35,000 nucleotides of DNA from Chiloscyllium plagiosum (Eukaryota): positions 1-35,000 of the forward strand of contig NW_025213664.1 in assembly GCF_004010195.1 (NCBI RefSeq), read 5' to 3'. Positions 3,663-33,631 of the stretch are shown here, piece after piece. Below the pieces are notes generated by a model. That model was not told where the DNA came from and ran no database searches. It was given only the letters and a program-made list of their open reading frames with translations. Every line of letters begins with the position of its first letter. Position 1 is the stretch's first letter. Made by a program: the position numbers and the translations under genes.

Positions 3663-3763
3663 ATCCTCCCTTTCATTACAGAGAATAGCAAATTCAATTT
3701 AAAGGTAAAATTGTACATTATCCCCTATTACGAGCACTCATTCTTAGCTATAGGGAGAACCAA

Positions 3764-4345
3764 AGAGTCACAGAGCCATACAGCACGGAAACAGACCCTT
3801 TGCTCCAACTCATAAGTGCCGACCAGATATCCTAATCTAATCTAGTCCCATTAACCAGCACTTAGCCCACATCCCTCTAAACCCTTCCTATTCATATACC
3901 CATCCAGATACCTTTCAAATGTTGTAATTGTACCAGCCTCCACCACTTCCCCTGGCAGCTCATTCCATAAACACACCACCAGCTGCATGAAACAGTTGTC
4001 CATTAAGTCCCTTTTAAATCTTTCTCCTCTCACATTAAACCTATGCCCTCTAGTTCTGGACTCATCCACCCTAGGGAAAATACCTTGTCTATTTACCTTA
4101 TTCATATCCCTCATGATCTTATAAACCTTTGTAAGGTCACCCCCTCAGCCTCCGACGCTCCAGGGAAAACAGCTCCGGCCTATTCAGCCTCTCCCTATAG
4201 CTCAAACCCTCCAACTCTGGCAACATCCTTGTAAATCTTTTCTGAACCCTTTCAAGTTCTACAACATCTTTCCGATAGGAAGGAGACCAGAATTGTACAC
4301 AATATTCCAACAGTGGCCTAACCAATGTCCTGTACAGCCGCAACA
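3764..4345 (-). mobile_element. young 5'-truncated CR1 LINE abutting the tetraspanin exon
   Basis: ORFs LRLYRTLVRPLLEYCVQFWSPSYRKDVVELERVQKRFTRMLP and SRTRGHRF..LWNELP plus a 3' tail. Closely similar to 10680-11198 and 12130-12907. Confidence 0.95.
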
Positions 4346-4624
4346 CTGCAAGCAGTTTTGTGTCACGTTACACCTTTTCAGCTCTAGGAGAAAGATAAAG
4401 GAGAGGTCCAGGTAAAACACCACATATTTGCTGCCCTTTGACGAGGTGTACTCTGCCTTGCTGGTTTTAGGTCCTGGGTTGGAGTGTAGCCCATAGAAGG
4501 AGGAGGTGGTATCCCGGTACAAACTGCTGTAACGCCGGAAGGTACCGTGTGCCGGCGGGTATTCCTTACTGTCCAGGGACGGGCTGCGATGGGAGGCAGA
4601 TTCCTCACTGTCTGACCGATCCAT
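4343..4624 (-). pseudogene. tspan4: tetraspanin (TSPAN4/TSPAN9 group) N-terminal exon with upstream in-frame extension, truncated by CR1; functional status unresolved
   Basis: Non-repetitive ORF with a good Kozak context (GGG-ATG-G), ending YVVFYLDLSFIFLLELKRCNVTQNCLQC. ELKRC-x-(M)xxxCLQ matches my recollection of the TSPAN4 start region (ELKRCG-MARACLQ). An internal polypyrimidine tract and AG (CTCTCCTTTATCTTTCTCCTAG, AG at 4385-4384) lies 17 nt before the expected start position, which is GTG here (4366-4364). The expected KYLMFxFNLLFW continuation is replaced by CR1. Confidence 0.65.
4384..4405 (-). promoter_or_regulatory. splice acceptor embedded in the open frame
   Basis: Minus strand reads CTCTCCTTTATCTTTCTCCTAG|AGCTGAAAAGG. 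Confidence 0.6.
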
Positions 4625-6069: not shown

Positions 6070-7085
6070 TCACCCTGCTGGGACCCGTCCAGCTCAGTGT
6101 TGTACAGACTGCCCCCTGCTGGGACCCCTCCAGTTCAGCGTTGTACACACTGCCCCCTGCTGGGACTCCTCCAGCTCAGGGTTGTACAGACTGCCCCCTG
6201 CTGGGACCCCTCCATCTCAGTGTTATACAGACTGCCCCCTGCTGGGACCCCTCCAGCTCAGTGTTGTACAGACTGCCCCCTGCTGGGACCCCTCCAGCTC
6301 AGTGTTGTACAGACAGCCCCCTGCTGGGACCCCTCCATCTCAGTGTTGTACACACTGCCCCCTGCTGGGACCCCTCCAGCTCATTGTTGTACACACCGCC
6401 CCTTGCTGGGACCCCTCCAGCTCAGTGTTGTACAGACTGCCCCCTGCTGGGACCCCTCCAGCTCAGTGTTGTACACACTGCCCCATGCTGGGACCCTCCA
6501 GCTCAGTGTTGTACAGACTGCCCCCTGCTGGGACCCCTCCAGCTCAGTGTTGTACAGACTGCCCCCTGCTGGGACCCTCCAGCTCAGTGTTGTACAGACT
6601 GCCCCCTGCTGGGACCTCTCCTGCCCCCTGCTGGGACCTCTCCTGCTCAGTGTTGTACAGACTGCTCCCTGCTGGGATCCCTCCAGCTCAGTGTTGTACA
6701 CACTGCCCCCTGCTGGGACTCCTCCAGCTCAGTGTTGAATAGTTGGATAGACTGCCTCCTGCTGGGACCCCTCCTGCTCAGTGTTGTACAGACTGCCCCT
6801 ATGGGACTCCTCCAGCTCAGTGTTGGATAGTTGGATAGACTGCCTCCTGCTGGGACCCCTCCTGCTCAGTGTTGTACAGACTGCCCCTGCTGGGACCCCT
6901 CCAGCTCAATCTTGGATAGTTGGATAGACTGCCCCCTGCTGGGACCCCTCCGGCTCAGTCCTGTACAGACTGCCCCCTGCTGGGACCCCTCTAGCTCAGT
7001 CTTGGATAGTTGGATAGATTGCCCCCTGCTGGGACCCCTCCAGCTCAGTCTTGGATAGTTGGATAGACTGCCCCCTGCTGGGATC
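6070..7085. repeat. 41-bp minisatellite, roughly two dozen units
   Basis: Unit CCCCCTGCTGGGACCCCTCCAGCTCAGTGTTGTACAGACTG. Distal units carry a TTGGATAG insertion. Confidence 0.95.
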
Positions 7086-9115: not shown

Positions 9116-9350
9116 AGAAAAACAGAAATCACTGGAAGAGCTCAGCAGAACTGGCAGCATTTGTGGGGAGAAATCAGCGTGAATGTTTCGGATCGAATGA
9201 GCCTTCCTCAGACCCGTCCTGAGCGAGGGTCACTCGAGCTGAAAGGTTAACTCTGATTTCTCTCCGCAGATGCTGGCAGACCTGCTGAGCTTTTCCAATG
9301 ATTTCTGCTTTCGTTTCTGATTTACAGCATCTGCAATTCTTTCGGATTTT
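9116..9350. mobile_element. older Penelope-derived fold-back element, second family
   Basis: Imperfect inverted arms (CAGAAATCACTGGAAGAGCTCAGCAG... / ...CTGCTGAGCTTTTCCAATGATTTCTG), with degenerate CTGAGGA..GAAA cores near the centre and the shared CAGCATCTGCA end motif. Confidence 0.7.
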
Positions 9351-15024: not shown

Positions 15025-16110
15025 CAAGATGAAGAAGAAGGCTTATGTTAGGATGAGATGGAAGGGCTCAGTTAGGGCGCTTGTCAGTTACCAGGTAACC
15101 AGGAAAGCCCTAAAGAGAGAGTTAAGAAAAGCCAGGAAGGGACATGAGAGGAGGCAGGGAGGATCAAGGAAAACCCTAAAGCTTTCTATGGGTATATCAG
15201 AATAACTAGAGTAAGATTAGGGCCAATCAAGGATAGCAGTGGGAAGTTGTGCGTGGAGTCTGAGGAGATAGGGGAAGCGCAAAATGAATATTTTTCGTCA
15301 GTATTCACACTGGAAAAACAATGTTGTCAAGCAGAATACTGAAATACAGGCTACTAGACTAAATGGGATCCAGGTGCATAACGAGGAGGTGTGAGCAGTT
15401 CTGATAAGTATGAAAATAGATAAGTCCCCTGGGCCGGATGGGATTTATCCTAGGTTGAAAGTTGCCACCCAGGTCAATAGGGTTGTTAAGAAGTGGTGTG
15501 TTCACTTTTATTGGTAGAGGGATTGAGTTTCAGAGCCATGAGGTCACGCCGCAGTCATACACACTCTGGTGCGTCCGCACTTGGAGTACTGCATGCAGTT
15601 CTGGTCACCACATTTTAGGAAGGATGTGGAAGCTTTGGAAAGGGTGCAGAGGTGATTTACTAGGATGCTGCCTGGTATGGAGGGAAGTTCTTGTGAGGAA
15701 AGGCCGAGGGACATGAAGTTCTTATGAGGAAAGGCCGAGGGACATGTTAGAGAGAAGAGGTGACTTAATTGAGACATGTAAGATAATCAGAGGGTTAGAT
15801 AGGGTAAACAGTTAGGGTCTTTCCTCGGATGGTGATGGCTGGCACAAGGGGACGTAGCTTTAATTTGGAGGGTGATAGGTAATAGGTCAGATATCAGAGG
15901 TAGGTTCTTTACTCAGAGAGTAGAAGGGGCATGGAACACACTGCCTGCAACAGTAGTAGACTTACCAACTTTAAGGGAATTTAAATGGTCATTGGGAAAA
16001 CATATGGGTGATAATGGAATAGTGTAGGATAGGTAGGCTTCAGATTGGTTCCTCAGATCAGCGCAACATTGAGGGCCATTGTACTGCGCTGTAATGTTCT
16101 ATGTTCTATA
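15025..16110 (+). mobile_element. CR1 LINE with RT core internally deleted
   Basis: The tether region (..DKSPGPDGIYPR, ending about 15454) joins directly to the post-RT 'LKVATQV' region. The tail is (TTCTATG)n. Confidence 0.85.
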
Positions 16111-16460
16111 TATATTCTATGTAAACGCTTCCTTTATAAAAGACTCACACATTTTCCCAATAATGGACATTGAGCTAAGAGAGTTATTGTTGTCTGTTCT
16201 TTGTCTCTTGCCCCTCCTCCATTTCTCAGGGACTTTTCTAAACTCAAAGGATTCCTGGATGGTTAAAAACAGTAGACCCACTATTCCTGAAGCTACGTGG
16301 AGTCATAGATGTGGAGGTGCCAGTGGTACACCCATACGCACACCCTCTCACAGGCATATACTCTATCAGGAGGGAGTGAGAACTGCAGATGCTGGAGATC
16401 ACAGCTGAAAAATATGTTGCTGGAAAAGCGCAGCAGGTCAGGCAGCATCAAATGAGCAGG

Positions 16461-16500
16461 AGAATCGACGTTTCGGACATAAGCCCTTCTTCAGGAATGC
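16461..16500 (-). ncRNA. putative minimal type I hammerhead ribozyme, copy A
   Basis: Minus strand: gcattc-CTGAAGA-A-GGGC-ttat-GTCC-GAAAC-GTC-gattct. The core is intact, helix III is the palindrome ACGU, and helix I is weak. Confidence 0.55.
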
Positions 16501-16764
16501 ACTCACACTCCATTGCACTCACACACACACCCTCTCACAGGCATATACTCCATCTACTCACACACACCCTCTCACAGTCATATACTCCATCACACTCTCA
16601 CACACACCCTCTCACAGGCATATACTCCATCACACTCACACACACACCCTCTCACAGGCATATACTCTATCAGGAGGGAGTGAGAACTGCAGATGCTGGA
16701 GATCACAGCTGAAAAATATGTTGCTGGAAAAGCGCAGCAGGTCAGGCAGCATCAAATGAGCAGG

Positions 16765-16804
16765 AGAATCGACGTTTCGGACATAAGCCCTTCTTCAGGA
16801 ATGC
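16765..16804 (-). ncRNA. putative minimal type I hammerhead ribozyme, copy B
   Basis: Identical to 16461-16500, 304 bp away. Confidence 0.55.
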
Positions 16805-17489
16805 ACTCACACTCCATTGCACTCACACACACACTTTATGAAGTTTGCGCACACGCAAACACACACTCTCTTATGTGCGCTCGCAGTCACACACACACAC
16901 ATGCACACAGTCACTATCTCTATCTCTTTCTCTCTCATGCATGTGCGCACACATATAAATCAATGGGGTGAATTTGTATATTCAGAATTATATTTGCAGG
17001 TACTTCTGTTTTGCTCAAAAAGTGCACAATCTGCAGGCAGTCAATGCAGGCAGTCAATCCATGTAATATTTTGTAAAATCCACTTTGGAAATAGAAGTAG
17101 TCTGACTCAAAATTGGCATACAGACAGACGCTAACCTCACACCTTTAATGCATTTTCTAACTGAGGTGTCACTTTTTTTTAATAAAACCTAAAGTTATCT
17201 CAAGAGCGTGACTTAAAATAAGTTCGGGGATTTACATACTAATGAACTGAAACCTCCAACCCATTCTAAAAGATGAAAGGCTAAACAATAATTTAGGTTT
17301 GTTCAATATGTCATCGAGATTATACTGGAACTGTCTAAAATCTTTTGTGTGTCTGTATCAGAGAATTAACTGTAATCTTTTGCTATAAATTCTGTGTCTT
17401 ATGGTCCTATTCTACAGCTACATGATGAAGGAGTAGTGCTTTGAAAGCTAATGCTTCCAAATAAACCTGTTGTTTTGTGAGTTATAACT

Positions 17490-18760
17490 GGGTTTTATTA
17501 AGAGGAGGTCATGTCTGACCAGCTTGATTGAATTTTTTGAAGCGGTGACCATCATCATTGTGTAGATGAGATCAGTGCTTTTGAAAAAGTCCATTTGTAC
17601 TTTAGCATGCTGTTTATAAGGTCCTAATTGGGAGACTGTTAGCAGAGATAAAGCCATGAGATCCAAGCAAATTTGGAAAATTAGATCCTAATTGACTGAG
17701 AAGCAGGAAGTGGAGGGTGATGGTTGAGGAATGCTTTTCTGACTGAAAGTCTGTGTTCAACATCCGGCAGGTATCAGTGTCAGAACCCATCTGTTTTTGG
17801 TTTACAAAAATGAATCAGACTTGAATGCAGGTCAGTTGATCAGTAGCTTTGCAGATAATACAATATTTGGTGAGTGGTAAACAATGAGGAGGATAGCCTT
17901 AGAGTACAAGAAGATATAGACAGGCTAGTCAGATGGGTTGAATCGTGACAAATGGAATTTGAACCATATAAATGTGCAATGATGAGCTTTGGCAGGAGAA
18001 AGAAAGCAAGTGAATCCATGAGGATCTTGGAAAGCACAAAAATCTGAGGGACCTTGATGTGCACATACATCAGTTTCTTAAGATATCAATTTAGATAGAT
18101 AGATAAAGTTGTTAACAGACATATGGCACACTTATCTTTATTAGTTGAGGCTTAGAGTTTCAGAGCATCGAGATTATACTGGAACTGTCTAAAATATTAA
18201 GTAGGCCACAGCCAAAGTATTGTGTGTAGTTATGGAATCCAGTTTGTAGGAGGAATGTGATAACACCGGAGAGGATGCACAGGAGATTTAACTGGATGTT
18301 GCCTGTGCTGGAAAGTTTCAGTGATAAAAGAAGATTGGATAGACTTGGATTATTTCCTTCTGGCAAAGGCAATTGAGAGGAGGTATGATTGAGAAGCAAC
18401 AAATTATGAGGGGCATAAATAAGATATAAAGAGGAAGACATTTTTCCTCTTGATAGAGGGATCATGAAGAGGGGACACAAATTTAAGGAAAGGGTAAGAA
18501 GATTTAGAGGAGATGTGAGAAAAACCTCTTTCACCCAGAGAGTGGTGGGAATTGAACTCACTACCTGTAAGGGTGGTAGAGGTTGGAACCCTTATAACTT
18601 ACATGAAGTATTTAGATGCGTACTTGTGAAACCAAGGCATTCAAGACTATGGACCAAGTGCTGGAAAATGGGATTAGAATAGTTAGGTGGTTGTTTTAGA
18701 CCGGCATGAACACAATGGAACAAAGAGCCTTTTTCTGTGCTGTAGATGTTTATGACTCTA
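17490..18760 (+). mobile_element. degraded CR1 LINE, RT region to 3' end
   Basis: RSCLTSLIEFFEAVT, FADN, and RGHKFKERVRRFRGDVRKTSFTQRVV motifs plus a tail. Confidence 0.9.
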
Positions 18761-19688
18761 TAATAAGGCAGTACAAGGATAGACAGCTAAAGTTGTAAAC
18801 CCAAAATTGGGGTCAATATCTGCTCACAGCTTTCAGATAAATTCCTATTTCTATTTTTCCCTCTAAGAAACCTGAAGGCAGGGTGAACTGCTGGGGCAGA
18901 AAGGTGGATGGCCTGCAGAGAACATAAAAACAAAGTGATTGGAAGAAGAACTAGAGGCAAGTTGTACAAAGTGATTTTTTTAATGCATTGAGTGCAGTCA
19001 AAACAGAATCAATATCAATTCTCAAGAGCAATTTGATAAATATTTGAATGCGAAGGTCAAAGGATTTAATCTCATGGGATTAACTGGAGAAGGCTACCAA
19101 AAAGATGACAGAACTACAATGGACCTAATGGTCTTTCTCTGTGCTGATGAGTTTTAATTAACTGTCTTTTGAGCATAAGCCTTAAAAAAGACTTACTTAT
19201 GTTGGAGACCCTCTCACAGGCATACATTTCATCACACTCACACACACACACCCTCTCACAGGCATACACTCCATCACACTCACACACATCTCTCTCACAG
19301 GCATATACTCCATCACACTCACACACACACCCTCTCACAGGCATATTCTCCATCACACTAATGTAAACACTCTGTTAAACAGACACACACACTCTGTGCC
19401 TCTTTCCGTCTGACACACGCTCACACATGCACACACGCTCTCACTTTCTCTCTCCCTCACACACATGCGCACAGACGCATAAGTCTATGGTGCATTTGCA
19501 GAGTTGTTTTTGCAGATGTCTTCTATTTTGTTCAAAAAGCACATAACCTGCAGGCAGCCAGTCCGTGTGACATTTTATCAATCCATGCTTTGGAGATCGG
19601 AATGGTCTGACTCAAGGTTGGGATACAGAGAGACTCTAACCTCTCGTCTTTAATGCATCGTTTCAGTTGAGATGCCACTTTTTTTTAT

Positions 19689-19890
19689 GGTTTGGCGATG
19701 CCGGTGTTGGACTGGGGTGTACAAAGTGAAAAATCACACAACACCAGGTTATAGTCCAACAGGTTTAATTGGAAGCACACTAGCTTTCAGAGCGCTGCTC
19801 CTTCATCAGGTGGTAGTGGAGTGTCGCTCCAAAAGCTAGTGTGCTTCCAATTAAACCTGTTGGACTATAATCTGGTGTTGTGTGATTTTT
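19689..19890. mobile_element. Penelope-derived fold-back element, third family, with perfect 13-bp TSD
   Basis: Near-perfect inverted arms of about 70 bp (AAAGTGAAAAATCACACAACACCAG..CTAGCTTT and its reverse complement). CACTTTTTTTTAT occurs at 19676-19688 and 19891-19903. The empty site is visible in copy 1 near 17170. Confidence 0.85.
19776..19816 (-). ncRNA. putative minimal hammerhead ribozyme, CUA cleavage triplet
   Basis: Minus strand: cac-CTGATGA-A-GGAGC-agc-GCTCT-GAAAG-CTA-gtg. Helix I is 3 bp (cac/gtg) and helix III is the palindrome AGCU. Confidence 0.55.
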
Positions 19891-20180
19891 CACTTTTTTT
19901 TATAAAACCTTAAAATATCTTGGGAATGTGACTTGAAGTTCTGGGATTTACATATTAATGAACGGAACCCTGTGACCCATTCTAAACGATGAAAGACTTA
20001 ACAGCAATCTAGGTTTGTTCAATACATCGCATCAGTTGTGTGACACTATGATGTTTTGCTGTAAATTCCGAGACCTATGATCCTGTACCATTAGCTACCT
20101 GCTGAATGAACAGTGCTCCGAAAGCTAGTGCTTCCAAATTATCCTGTTGGACTATCACCTGGTGTTGTGTGACTTTTAAC

Positions 20181-26197: not shown

Positions 26198-27162
26198 GAG
26201 ATTGTTAAAGATCTTTAGCCTCTGGCAAGGTGCAGAAGACTGGAGAACAGTCAGTGTTGTTCCTGTGTTTAAGAAGGGTAACAGGGATAACCCAGAAAAT
26301 TATAGGCCAGTGATCTTATATTGTTAATGGGGAAATTATTGGAGAAGATTCTTACGGACAGGATTATTCACTTTTGAAACAGAATGTATTTATTAGGGAT
26401 AGTCAACATGGCTTTGTGCAGGGGTGGTCTTGTCTCACAAACCTGATTGAGTTTTCTGAGGAAATGAGAAGGAGATTGATGAGGTTAGGGCAGTGGATAC
26501 TGTCCACATGGACTTTACTAAAGCATTTGAGAAGCTCCCTCATGGTAGGCTGGTCCAGCAGATTAAGGCACATGGGGTCCACGCTGAGTTGGCAACTTGG
26601 CTTGGTCAGAGAAGACCGAAGGCAGTTGTAGAGGGGTGTTTTTCTGACTGGAGTTCTGTGACCAGTGGTGTACCTCAAGGATCTTTGCTGGCACCTCTGT
26701 TGTTTGTAAAACATACAAATGATCTGGATGAAAATCTAGGTGGTCTGATTAGAAAGTTTGCAGGCAACACGAAGATTGGTAGATCTGTGGATAGTCAGGA
26801 AGGTTGTCAAAGGAAACAGCAGGATATAGATCTTTGGAAAGTTGGACGGAGAAATGGCAAATGGAGTTTAATCTGGACAAGTTGAGGTGATGCATTTTGG
26901 GAGGTCAAGTGCAGGGGGAAAGTACACAGTAAATGGAAGGACCCTTAGAAGCATTGATATACACGGGGAATTGTTCATAGCTCCCTGAAAGTAACAACAC
27001 AAGTGGGTAAGGTGGGAATGAAGATGTACAACATGCTTGCCTTCATCAGTCAGAGCACTGAGTATAAAAGTTGGCAAATCATGTTGTAGCAGCATAAAAT
27101 TTTAGTTAGGCCACAGTTAGAGTATTGTGTATAATTCTGGTCACCACACTACAGGAAGGATT

Positions 27163-27485
27163 TGGAAAAGCACAGCAAGCCAGGCAGCATCCAAGGATCA
27201 GAGTCGATGTTTCGGGCATAAGCCTTTCATTAGGAATGAGGCTTGTGGGCTGGGGGAGCTAAGACATACAAGAGTAGGGGGTAGGGCTTGGGGGGGGGGG
27301 AGTTGTTGGGGAGGGTGAGGTCGCATTCTCAGCTATCTTCCCCACATCCCTACCCCACTCCCACTTACCCCTCAGCCCCCTCCGGCCCACAAGCCTCATT
27401 CCTGATGAAGGGCTTTTGACCGAAACATTGACTCACCTGCTCTTCGGATGCTGCCTGACCAGCAGTGTTCTTCCAGCATCACACT
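27163..27485. mobile_element. Penelope-derived fold-back element with longer arms and decayed hammerhead cores
   Basis: Inverted arms (..GGAATGAGGCTTGTGGGC.. / ..GCCCACAAGCCTCATTCC..). Plus-strand CTGATGA-A-GGGC-TTTT-GACC-GAAAC-ATT starts at 27402. Confidence 0.75.
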
Positions 27486-27825: not shown

Positions 27826-30800
27826 AAGAGTGCTGCTGTACCATTCTCCCCATCAGGTAACATTGACTGTGAATCACTGTGTGTGAGTGCTGCTGTACCA
27901 TTCCCGCTCAGGTGACATTGACAGCGAATCACTGTGTGTGAGTGCTGCTGTACCATTCCCCCACAGGTAACATTGACTGTGAATCACTGTGTGTGAGTGC
28001 TGTTGGAACATTCTCCCTCAGATAATATTGACTGTGAATCGCTGTCTGTGAGTGATGCTGTACCATTCTCCCCATCAGGTAAAATTGACTGTGAATTGCA
28101 GTGTGTGAGTGCTGCTGTACCATTCTCTCCATCAGGTAACATTGACTGTGAATCACTGTGTGTGAGTGCTGCTGTACCATTCTCTCCATCAGGTAACATT
28201 GACTGTGAATCACTGTGTGTGAGTGCTGCTGTACCATTCTCTCCATCAGGTAACATTGACTGTGAATCACTGTGTGTGAGTGCGGCTGTACCATTCTCAA
28301 TCACTGTGTGTGAGTGCTGCTGTACCACTCTCCCCGTCTGGTAACATTGACTGTGAATCACTGTGTGTGAGTGCTGCTGTACCACTCTCCCCGTCTGGTA
28401 ACATTGACTGTGAATCACTGTGTGTGAGTGCTGCTGTACCACTCTCCCCGTCTGGTAACATTGACTGTGAATCACTGTGTGTGAGTGCTGCTGTACCACT
28501 CTCCCCGTCTGGTAACATTGACTGTGAATCACTGTGTGTGAGTGCTGCTGTACCACTCTCCCCGTCTGGTAACATTGACTGTGAATCACTGTGTGTGAGT
28601 GCTGCTGTACCACTCTCCCCGTCTGGTAACATTGACTGTGAATCACTGTGTGTGAGTGCTGCTGTACCACTCTCCCCGTCTGGTAACATTGACTGTGAAT
28701 CACTGTGTGTGAGTGCTGCTGTACCACTCTCCCCGTCTGGTAACATTGACTGTGAATCACTGTGTGTGAGTGCTGCTGTACCACTCTCCCCGTCTGGTAA
28801 CATTGACTGTGAATCACTGTGTGTGAGTGCTGCTGTACCACTCTCCCCGTCTGGTAACATTGACTGTGAATCACTGTGTGTGAGTGCTGCTGTACCACTC
28901 TCCCCGTCTGGTAACATTGACTGTGAATCACTGTGTGTGAGTGCTGCTGTACCACTCTCCCCGTCTGGTAACATTGACTGTGAATCACTGTGTGTGAGTG
29001 CTGCTGTACCACTCTCCCCGTCTGGTAACATTGACTGTGAATCACTGTGTGTGAGTGCTGCTGTACCACTCTCCCCGTCTGGTAACATTGACTGTGAATC
29101 ACTGTGTGTGAGTGCTGCTGTACCACTCTCCCCGTCTGGTAACATTGACTGTGAATCACTGTGTGTGAGTGCTGCTGTACCACTCTCCCCGTCTGGTAAC
29201 ATTGACTGTGAATCACTGTGTGTGAGTGCTGCTGTACCACTCTCCCCGTCTGGTAACATTGACTGTGAATCACTGTGTGTGAGTGCTGCTGTACCACTCT
29301 CCCCGTCTGGTAACATTGACTGTGAATCACTGTGTGTGAGTGCTGCTGTACCACTCTCCCCGTCTGGTAACATTGACTGTGAATCACTGTGTGTGAGTGC
29401 TGCTGTACCACTCTCCCCGTCTGGTAACATTGACTGTGAATCACTGTGTGTGAGTGCTGCTGTACCACTCTCCCCGTCTGGTAACATTGACTGTGAATCA
29501 CTGTGTGTGAGTGCTGCTGTACCACTCTCCCCGTCTGGTAACATTGACTGTGAATCACTGTGTGTGAGTGCTGCTGTACCACTCTCCCCGTCTGGTAACA
29601 TTGACTGTGAATCACTGTGTGTGAGTGCTGCTGTACCACTCTCCCCGTCTGGTAACATTGACTGTGAATCACTGTGTGTGAGTGCTGCTGTACCACTCTC
29701 CCCGTCTGGTAACATTGACTGTGAATCACTGTGTGTGAGTGCTGCTGTACCACTCTCCCCGTCTGGTAACATTGACTGTGAATCACTGTGTGTGAGTGCT
29801 GCTGTACCACTCTCCCCGTCTGGTAACATTGACTGTGAATCACTGTGTGTGAGTGCTGCTGTACCACTCTCCCCGTCTGGTAACATTGACTGTGAATCAC
29901 TGTGTGTGAGTGCTGCTGTACCACTCTCCCCGTCTGGTAACATTGACTGTGAATCACTGTGTGTGAGTGCTGCTGTACCACTCTCCCCGTCTGGTAACAT
30001 TGACTGTGAATCACTGTGTGTGAGTGCTGCTGTACCACTCTCCCCGTCTGGTAACATTGACTGTGAATCACTGTGTGTGAGTGCTGCTGTACCACTCTCC
30101 CCGTCTGGTAACATTGACTGTGAATCACTGTGTGTGAGTGCTGCTGTACCACTCTCCCCGTCTGGTAACATTGACTGTGAATCACTGTGTGTGAGTGCTG
30201 CTGTACCACTCTCCCCGTCTGGTAACATTGACTGTGAATCACTGTGTGACTGCTGCTGTACCATTCATCCCGTCAGGTAACATTGACTGTGAATCACTGT
30301 GTGTGAGTGCTGCTGTACCATTCTCCCTCAAGTAACATTGATTGTGAATCACTGTGTGTGAGTGCTGCTGTACCATTCTCCTCACCAGGTAACATTGACA
30401 GTGAATCACTGTGTGTGAGTACTGCTGTACCATTCTCCCTCAAGTAACATTGACTGTGAATCACTGTGTGTGAGTGCTGCTGTACCATTCTCCCCACCAG
30501 GTAACATTGACAGTGAATCACTGTGTGTGAGTGCTGCTGTACCATTCTCTCCTTCAGGTAACATTGAATGTGAATCATTGTGTGTGAGTGCTGTTGTACC
30601 ATTCTCCCTCAGGAAACATTGACTGTGAATCACTGTGTGTGAGTGCTTGCTGTACCAAACTCCCCATCAGGTAACATTGACTGTGAATCACTGTGTGTGA
30701 GTGCTGCTGTACCACTCTCCCCATCTGGTAACATTGACTGTGAATCACTGTGTGTGAGTGCTGCTGTACCATTCTCCCCATCAGGTAACATTGACTGTGA

Positions 30801-33631
30801 ATCACTGTGTGTGAGTGCTGCTGTACCATTCTCCCCACCAGGTAACTTTGACTGTGAATCACTGTGTGTGAGTGCTGCTGTACCATTCTCCCCATCAGGT
30901 AACATTGACTGTTCATCACTGTGTGTGAGTGCTGCTGTACCATTCTCTACCTCAGGAAACATTGACTGTGAATCACTTTGTGTGAGTTCAGCTGTACCAT
31001 TCTCTCCATCAGGTAACATTGACTGTGAATCACTGTGTGAGTGCTGCTGTACCATTCTCTACCTCAGGTAACATTGACTGTTAATCACTGTGTGTGAGTG
31101 CTGCTGTACCATTCTCCCCATCAGGTAACATTGACTGTGAATCACTGTGTGTGAGTGCTGCTGTACCATTCTCCCCATCAGGTAACATTGACTGTGAATC
31201 AGTGTGCGTGAGTGCTGCTGTACCATTCTCCCCACCAGGTAACATTGACTGTGAATCACTGTGTGTGAGTGCTGCTGTACCATTCTCCCCATCAGGTAAC
31301 ATTGACTGTGATTCACTGTGTGTGAGTGCTGCTGTACCATTCTCCCTCAGGTAACAATGGCTGTGAATTGCAGTTTGTGAGTGCTGCTGTACCATTCTCC
31401 CATCAGGTAACATTGAATGTGAATCTCTGTGTGTGAGAGCTGCTTTCCCATTCTCTCCCTCAGGTAACATTGACTGTGAATCACTGGGTGTGAGTACTGC
31501 TGTACCATTCGCCCCATCAGGTAACATTGACTGTGAATCACTGTGTGTGAGTGCTGCTGTGCCATTCTCCCTCTGGTGACATTGACTGTGAATCACTGTG
31601 TGTGAGTGCTGCTGTACCATTCTCCCTCACGTGACATTGACAGGGAATCACTGTGTGTCAGTGCTGCTGTACCATTCACCCCGTCAGGTAACATTGACTG
31701 TGAATCAGTGTGTGTGAGTGCAGCTGTACCATTCTCCATCAGGTGACATTGACAGGGAATCACTGTGTGTGAGTGCTGCTGAACCATTCTCCCTCAGGTG
31801 ACATTGACAGTAAATCACTGTGTGTGAGTGCTGCTGTACCATTCTCCGCGTCTGGTAACATTGACTGTGAATCACTGTCTGTGAGTGCTGCTGTACCATT
31901 CTCCCCATCAGGTAAAATTGACTGTGAATTGCAGTGCGTGAGTGCTGCTGTACCATTCTCCCCATCAGTTAACATTGACTGTGAATCACTGTGTGTGAGT
32001 GCTGCTGTACCATTCTCCCTCAGGTAACATTGACTGTGAATCACTGTGTGTGAGTGCTGCTGTACCATTCTCCCTCAGGTGACATTGACAGTGAATCACT
32101 GTGTGTGAGTGCTCCTGTACCATTCTCCCTCAGGTAACATTGACTGTGAATCACTGTGTGTGAGTGCTGCTGAACAATTCTCCCCATCATATAACATTGA
32201 CTGTGAATCTCTGTGTGTGAGTGCTGCTGTACCATTCTCCCCATCAGGTAACATTGACTGTGAATCTCTGTGTGTGAGTGCTGCTGTACCATTCTCCCAT
32301 CAGGTAACATTGAATTTGAATCACTGTGTGTGAGAGCTGCTGTCCCGTTCTCTCCATCAGGTAACATTGACTGTGAATCACTGTGTGAGTGCTGCTGTAC
32401 CATTCTCCCATCAGGTAACATTGAATTTGAATCACTGTGTGTGAGAGCTGCTGTCCCGTTCTCTCCATCAGGTAACATTGACTGTGAATCACTGTGTGAG
32501 TGCTGCTGTACCATTCTCCCATCAGGTAACATTGAATTTGAATCACTGTGTGTGAGAGCTGCTGTCCCGTTCTCTCCATCAGGTAACATTGACTGTGAAT
32601 CACTGTGTGAGTGCTGCTGTACCATTCTCCCATCAGGTAACATTGAATTTGAATCACTGTGTGTGAGAGCTGCTGTCCCGTTCTCTCCATCAGGTAACAT
32701 TGACTGTGAATCACTGTGTGAGTGCTGCTGTACCATTCTCCCATCAGGTAACATTGAATTTGAATCACTGTGTGTGAGAGCTGCTGTCCCGTTCTCTCCA
32801 TCAGGTAACATTGACTGTGAATCACTGTGTGAGTGCTGCTGTACCATTCTCCCATCAGGTAACATTGAATTTGAATCACTGTGTGTGAGAGCTGCTGTCC
32901 CGTTCTCTCCATCAGGTAACATTGACTGTGAATCACTGTGTGAGTGCTGCTGTACCATTCTCCCATCAGGTAACATTGAATTTGAATCACTGTGTGTGAG
33001 AGCTGCTGTCCCGTTCTCTCCATCAGGTAACATTGACTGTGAATCACTGTGTGAGTGCTGCTGTACCATTCTCCCATCAGGTAACATTGAATTTGAATCA
33101 CTGTGTGTGAGAGCTGCTGTCCCGTTCTCTCCATCAGGTAACATTGACTGTGAATCACTGTGTGAGTGCTGCTGTACCATTCTCCCATCAGGTAACATTG
33201 AATTTGAATCACTGTGTGTGAGAGCTGCTGTCCCGTTCTCTCCATCAGGTAACATTGACTGTGAATCACTGTGTGAGTGCTGCTGTACCATTCTCCCATC
33301 AGGTAACATTGAATTTGAATCACTGTGTGTGAGAGCTGCTGTCCCGTTCTCTCCATCAGGTAACATTGACTGTGAATCACTGTGTGAGTGCTGCTGTACC
33401 ATTCTCCCATCAGGTAACATTGAATTTGAATCACTGTGTGTGAGAGCTGCTGTCCCGTTCTCTCCATCAGGTAACATTGACTGTGAATCACTGTGTGAGT
33501 GCTGCTGTACCATTCTCCCATCAGGTAACATTGAATTTGAATCACTGTGTGTGAGAGCTGCTGTCCCGTTCTCTCCATCAGGTAACATTGACTGTGAATC
33601 ACTGTGTGAGTGCTGCTGTACCATTCTCCCC
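27826..33631. repeat. 57-bp satellite/minisatellite array, about 100 units, running into a gap
   Basis: Unit GAATCACTGTGTGTGAGTGCTGCTGTACCACTCTCCCCGTCTGGTAACATTGACTGT. Apparently identical block about 28298-30247, diverged units about 30250-32280, and a 111-bp dimer block about 32280-33631. Confidence 0.97.

Follow-up and report, generated by a model that had tools for sequence, protein, structure and literature searches.

The genome assembly of Chiloscyllium plagiosum contains a locus at which two identical minimal hammerhead motifs face in the same direction at a spacing of 304 nt, which raises the question of whether they delimit a retrozyme-like unit able to release a circular RNA, as an earlier note made from the sequence alone had suggested, or whether they are a by-product of repeat turnover. 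The window analysed here comprises 35,000 nucleotides (contig NW_025213664.1, positions 1 to 35,000). In our reading, the pair is probably one aged Penelope-like stub which was doubled by a recent local exchange within a minisatellite and which is inert or nearly so.

Two minimal hammerhead motifs in a repeated block

The two motifs reside on the minus strand at 16467–16494 and 16771–16798 and are identical to each other, and their letters are those given in the earlier note: all conserved letters of the hammerhead core are present in both, with C3 at 16494 and 16798 and C17 at 16467 and 16771. Each possesses an extra A after A9, a stem II of 4 bp in which one G-U pair is a minority variant, and an ACGU palindrome, and the cuts predicted after 16771 and 16467 would yield a piece of 304 nt. 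The assignment to the minimal, dimer-type hammerheads is borne out by the anatomy of the core, as helix III has no loop, the ACGU palindrome occupies positions 15.2–16.2, an additional base separates 9 from 10.1, and the G10.1–C11.1 pair is present. The same properties are described in PMC4209133 for the minimal hammerheads (min-HHR) that the Penelope-like elements (PLEs) of metazoans carry, motifs which are mostly single and dispersed or form opposite-strand pairs 100–700 bp apart; from these the present locus differs in its two same-direction copies 304 bp apart, which would result from a secondary event. It differs further from the Schistosoma min-HHR families treated in that text, having a helix II of 4 rather than 7–8 bp and a helix I of 2+1 rather than 4–5 bp. 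Each repeat carries a type I hammerhead motif, as retrozyme repeats do, though one of the minimal PLE type, and in place of the helix I of about 6 bp that a canonical hammerhead has, the register comprises 2 bp, a U-U mismatch and 1 bp, which makes the earlier caveat of a weak helix I apt. The pattern CTGANGA-N(1,30)-GAAAC has six matches in the window against 0.87 expected, a number reached in none of 100 shuffles. An Rfam search with E up to 10 returned no hammerhead among its 17 matches in the window, which is no evidence against the motifs because minimal motifs fall outside the Rfam models.

Self-comparison of the window revealed 192 bp which are exactly identical at an offset of 304 (16339–16530 and 16643–16834, neither block being assigned a strand), and a looser alignment of the same repeat covers 203 bp at 99%; with two satellite regions left out, the pair is the sole exact local direct repeat longer than 55 bp in the window. 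The 112 bp between the blocks (16531–16642, no strand assigned) occur once, so that the locus amounts to 1.63 units of 304 bp. Parsed at the unit boundary, the array consists of an insert-bearing minisatellite unit of 187 bp, three empty units of 37, 40 and 40 bp, which form the single-copy spacer, and a second insert-bearing unit. What recurs is precisely one insert-bearing unit together with CA-run microhomology, and CA runs are found at both ends of the block. TRF reported the 40-bp minisatellite but no array of period 304 among its 30 rows for the window, using settings which differ from those of Li et al. (10.64898/2026.07.22.740005), who call tandem arrays of at least two consecutive whole units by TRF. 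The earlier description of about 190 identical bp at 304-bp spacing inside a CA-rich minisatellite is thus confirmed, and of the direct tandem of a 304-nt unit that was read from it, the two same-direction copies stand but the full tandem does not, since 192 of 304 bp are repeated. A simple tandem duplication of 304 bp in a single event was rejected, since the identity would then extend over 304 bases and not over 192.

An abundant, probably Penelope-like stub

The motifs lie within a stub of 132 bp on the minus strand (16368–16499, with an identical second copy at 16672–16803), which starts 5 nt before the hammerhead core and whose anatomy points to the 5'-truncated end of a very abundant Penelope-like element, here referred to as family A. 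Insertions of endonuclease-bearing PLEs are characterised by 5' truncation, an inverted partner, an optional tail of 30–40 bp and a target-site duplication (PMC3846280, PMC8557442 and PMC11167929). The relatives of the stub within the window resemble such insertions: the closest one (1910–2126, no strand assigned, 90–92% alike) is a head-to-head stub pair with a target-site duplication of 13–14 bp, a total of seven other blast pieces of the family-A module are found in the window at 75–92% identity, mostly as head-to-head pairs, and duplications of 13–17 bp were identified at three of the five palindromic stub insertions tested (two of family A, one of family B). The stub at 16368–16499 is unlike them in that it has no inverted partner and resides inside the minisatellite of another element, and a search for target-site duplications around it and around the two host elements yielded nothing convincing. 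Two palindromes were also noted in the window: one of family A at 27163–27481, which retains pyrimidine-rich sequence upstream of the hammerhead and which causes the sub-threshold Rfam microRNA matches at 27218–27416, and a more diverged one at 9119–9340 with a hammerhead-like core at 9185–9211.

Public contigs and reads were placed on 16090–16700, with 16623–16700 left out and the right flank outside the stretch; the contig records placed number 6214 for run X1, 11929 for X2 and 8480 for X9 (organism B). Summed contig depth reaches 10^5–10^6 on the stub, where the unique flank has 18 and 8.5, a difference to be read as an order of magnitude and not as a copy number. Loose contig ends with mixed flanks pile up at 16497–16499, where the stub at 16368–16499 also ends, and a second pile is found at 16403–16409, approximately 30–35 bp short of the other end of the stub, the other copies running on in a tail-like manner; copies ending either at 16403–16409 or about 30–35 bp further are a further likeness to the endonuclease-bearing PLEs. 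Family A was thereby found to be dispersed, high in copy number and 5'-truncated, as PLE ends are. At four positions of the stub (16402, 16414, 16453 and 16477) the window carries a minority letter, 85–99% of the depth in the three contig runs having another one; the same four minority letters are common to both copies, meaning that the duplication postdates the ageing of the stub. Owing to the letter at 16477, stem II has a G-U in place of a G-C pair, which shifts its predicted energy from -7.9 to -5.2 kcal/mol.

A Pfam search of 296 window frames (148 on the minus and 148 on the plus strand, at least 42 aa long, satellites and gaps left out) linked no Penelope open reading frame, that is neither reverse transcriptase nor GIY-YIG, to family A; its sole match at the curated threshold was an RVT_1 fragment at 26460–26882, outside any stub. 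The hammerhead core pattern had no match in metagenome and viral contigs, all 15 matches of a 22-base downstream pattern in metagenomes were chance matches of 22–30 bases, and none of the literature matches listed dealt with shark Penelope hammerheads, the one 'shark' match being the name of a ribozyme.

The host element and the origin of the pair

The stub is hosted by an element of another family (family B, 16328–17472, plus strand), which consists of the CA-rich minisatellite, a 3' region of approximately 550 bp and, near its end, a decayed hammerhead of family B at 17422–17450 (plus strand) with C3 changed and helix I broken. A paralogue of the host at 19208–20180 (plus strand), to which it is 69–72% alike, possesses the same minisatellite without the family-A insert and thus represents the empty state. 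The proposed 304-bp monomer is thus a chance mosaic, namely a family-A stub within family-B sequence. Nested in the older paralogue is a young-looking family-B hammerhead palindrome (19689–19890) with a perfect target-site duplication of 13 bp, a helix I of 3 bp and an AGCU palindrome. The host itself holds a piece of 33 bp (17312–17344) which is 97% alike 18166–18198 in the LINE-like region at 18.2 kb and which is absent from the paralogue.

The favoured account starts from a plus-strand family-B element whose minisatellite was CA-rich and had a 40-bp unit, the state still shown by the empty paralogue. Next, the 132-bp 5'-truncated family-A end would have inserted antisense into one minisatellite unit and aged there; the insertion is documented by the comparison with the paralogue, and its Penelope identity is suggested by its anatomy. 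Much later, turnover of the minisatellite would have copied the insert-bearing unit to another position in the array, by unequal crossover or a conversion-like exchange with both ends in CA runs. The outcome would be an insert-bearing unit, three empty units and again an insert-bearing unit, and possibly only some individuals carry the second copy. That minisatellites turn over between alleles is established (PMC2599865). The earlier note had proposed unequal crossover, which fits well: provided that the duplication is real, local exchange within the minisatellite is its likeliest origin, the block being one insert-bearing unit. Alternatively, the duplicate might have been made during retrotransposition of the host, the reverse transcriptase having slipped back in the CA minisatellite, so that the insert-bearing unit was copied a second time. 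This is extremely unlikely, as the host is old, given its 69–72% likeness to the paralogue and its decayed hammerhead, yet the copies are identical; moreover, recent mobilisation of an already decayed chimera would be needed, and the contig and read data placed here contain no donor locus.

Evidence for and against a second copy

Local duplication presupposes that the second copy exists in the animal. It has no read support so far, which counts against the duplication and favours an assembly duplicate, whereby the animal would possess one stub and the assembler or gap filler either re-ran the repeat loop or joined two haplotypes. This explanation is to be taken seriously, albeit as the less probable one. 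The junction from the stub to its minisatellite flank at 16503 is covered by a single contig in X1 (16472–16622, depth 6.28, 1 difference), by which the spacer is spanned, and by a single contig in X2 (16454–16554, depth 9.67, 3 differences), the X1 contig alone having at least 31 letters on each side of 16530. The stub-to-spacer junction is hence present in two samples from two studies and the spacer was not invented by an assembler; such a junction would, however, also be expected if empty units came after one lone stub. Both contigs cross 16530 unbroken into the spacer, at a depth which is about or below that of the flank and not doubled, whereas an identical copy leading on to 16835 should have produced a break or fork. 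For the X1 and X2 animals this speaks mildly in favour of one copy, both junctions of copy 2 lying outside the covered stretch. Against an artefact it has to be considered that contigs drop branches beside high-copy repeats and therefore show presence, not absence, and that other individuals need not possess a recent duplication.

The complete identity of the two blocks can be read in the same two ways. Compared with the window, X2 has 6 differences in 271 flank bases and 3 in 101 junction bases, and at the 2.2% divergence seen there, zero differences in 192 bp have a probability of 0.014, as would suit an artefact. The left-flank contig of X1 (16152–16363, depth 18), on the other hand, agrees with the window in all 212 bases compared, and hence identity alone requires no artefact. 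Two letters of this contig are unmatched and were read as lying just past 16363, where empty and insert-bearing units differ. X1 may possess an allele with an empty first unit, given that its junction contig has one third of the flank depth. As to the assembly itself, the window contains two N gaps and, at 28299–33631, a 57-bp satellite of about 95 copies, which includes an exact period-57 run of 1893 bp, ends at a 672-base N gap and reflects either very recent homogenisation or assembly looping. Gaps and perfect run together suggest a raised prior for assembly loops, and PLE insertions are said to trouble short-read assemblies (PMC8557442). The earlier warning that the duplication could be an assembly artefact was well placed. 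Taking both sides together, we still hold the local duplication of one aged stub to be the better explanation.

Depth at 16503 bears furthermore on the idea that the 304-bp unit belongs to a mobile retrozyme family that occupies further loci or forms longer arrays elsewhere in the genome. Non-LTR retrozymes with a mean consensus of 363 bp are reported from the sole cartilaginous fish sampled by Li et al. (10.64898/2026.07.22.740005), which would make such a family conceivable in this genome. An amplified unit would show multi-copy depth, though, and the defining junction was found at single-copy depth in X1 and X2, arguing that the unit is no amplified family; it was without coverage in X9 and in the RNA run X21 at 94% likeness, a comparison which misses more diverged copies. 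In X9, coverage of 16195–16299 was likewise nil. As the unit is moreover a mosaic, its host half being found without the stub as well, and as it is present 1.63 times only, membership in a mobile family is scarcely credible.

Predicted folding and cleavage

A more specific version of the retrozyme reading assumes a real duplication, read-through minus-strand RNA in which the two motifs dimerise in cis via ACGU, perhaps aided by a Penelope protein, and a double cut yielding a 304-nt RNA which could be circularised. In favour of such a nascent retrozyme, the conserved core letters are complete in both copies and 304 lies within the 150–450 bp range given for animal retrozyme units in PMC7229834. 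Predicted folding speaks against it. The short helix I (2+1 bp) has its 5' strand, together with C3, taken up by the minisatellite flank in a predicted 7-bp hairpin (16494–16512, and the same at 16798–16816; minus strand, -7.0 kcal/mol), and the bases of this strand are 91–100% paired elsewhere in the folding model. For two constructs, helix III between the copies was predicted with a probability of 0.0005–0.002, the double hammerhead being 17–20 and the single folds 8–14 kcal/mol above the ensemble. The cis dimer suggested in the earlier note is thus topologically possible but strongly disfavoured in the model, where the fold ranks poor. Self-pairing of the 304-nt monomer is at chance level, with z 0.09 for the linear form (47 of 100 shuffles fold as well) and z 0.32 on 60 shuffles for the circular one, and hence the highly self-paired circle as which retrozymes are described (PMC7229834) was not obtained.

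The folding model contains neither a tertiary term for the hammerhead core nor protein help and was run with no positive-control dimer, so that its absolute numbers understate activity. Published dimers speak against a nascent retrozyme, too: those of minimal hammerheads cleave weakly (PMC4209133), and of nine Xenopus dimers one cleaved and eight did not (Li et al., 10.64898/2026.07.22.740005). The PLE hammerhead of the anole is reported to cleave only with its protein (PMC11167929), and as a consequence poor folding alone does not exclude activity. All in all, we regard a nascent retrozyme at this locus as very unlikely and return to the doubled, largely inert stub as the preferred explanation.

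Comparison with retrozymes

The locus resembles the animal non-LTR retrozymes, as described in PMC7229834 and 10.64898/2026.07.22.740005, in possessing two type I motifs of the same sense at a distance of a few hundred bases and a G+C content of 0.49, i.e., below 50%. It is unlike them in comprising 1.63 units at a single locus, in the mosaic nature of the unit, in its minimal ribozyme and in the lack of a predicted self-paired circle. Four retrozyme features looked for are consequently absent: two whole units, a family of the unit, a canonical helix I and a self-paired monomer. The retrozyme-like, circle-yielding 304-nt unit which the earlier note had envisaged is therefore not upheld, the unit being a mosaic repeated 1.63 times whose junction occurs at a single locus, whose fold resembles that of shuffles and whose helix I is trapped.

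The underlying idea that the end of a PLE may become a tandem retrozyme by local amplification is already in print, as Li et al. propose this origin for retrozymes (10.64898/2026.07.22.740005), where the step has so far been deduced from phylogeny and distribution. It lends some plausibility to the nascent retrozyme. A related scenario is a retrozyme at birth, in which the stub was duplicated by minisatellite turnover in some individuals and gives rise, with the aid of a Penelope protein, to a chimeric 304-nt circular RNA; we consider this scenario very improbable. If it did hold true, meaning that the dimer is real, polymorphic and active, the locus would directly exemplify how a single Penelope end becomes a tandem retrozyme, and one- and two-copy alleles within one species would be a natural test of the origin of retrozymes from PLE ends. 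As it most likely stands, the locus is of little importance, representing an ordinary doubling in a genome where such stubs are extremely numerous. For retrozyme callers which rely on two tandem motifs it implies that stubs doubled by repeat turnover or by an assembler will be picked up.

Transcription and locus context

RNA reads were taken from run X21, a poly(A) single-cell library of which approximately 2% was read (12,955,460 records); the search of sequencing runs listed no RNA run with the stub. From this sample 287 reads were placed, on both strands, of which 286 fit partly and 4 are at least 99% alike. In the same sample, no read fell on the unique flank 16090–16362 or on 16503, and no pile-up of read starts or ends was listed. 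The reads placed look like passengers from other family-A copies. The absence of locus-specific reads counts weakly against a nascent retrozyme and does not show silence, because circles would escape a poly(A) single-cell library.

The earlier note had further suggested that a minus-strand transcript of the locus, having the same sense as a tetraspanin exon, might be intronic. The sense agrees: a TSPAN4-like N-terminal coding exon lies on the minus strand at 4346–4624, 12 kb 3' of the hammerhead locus, and its best matches in a homologue search (244 matches among 281 candidates) are TSPAN4 of cartilaginous fish at 72–74% identity. The homologue match stops at 4346, where a LINE 3' fragment (3761–4345) begins, and neither the rest of the exon nor any later exon gave a credible tblastn match in the window; Pfam detected no tetraspanin among the 296 window frames, and the exon-candidate scan missed the exon at 4346–4624 as well. 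Possible explanations are a dead duplicate, a disrupted allele and a mis-join. As the exon breaks off at the LINE and the window yielded no later exon, transcription across the hammerhead locus from a host gene is unproven, and so is the intronic position, which would hold only if an upstream exon exists beyond those found. Near the exon break, the Met of the homologues reads Val in the window. Approximately 1.5 kb 5' of the exon, at 6073–7083, lies a G+C-rich 41-bp minisatellite with variants of 49 and 90 bp.
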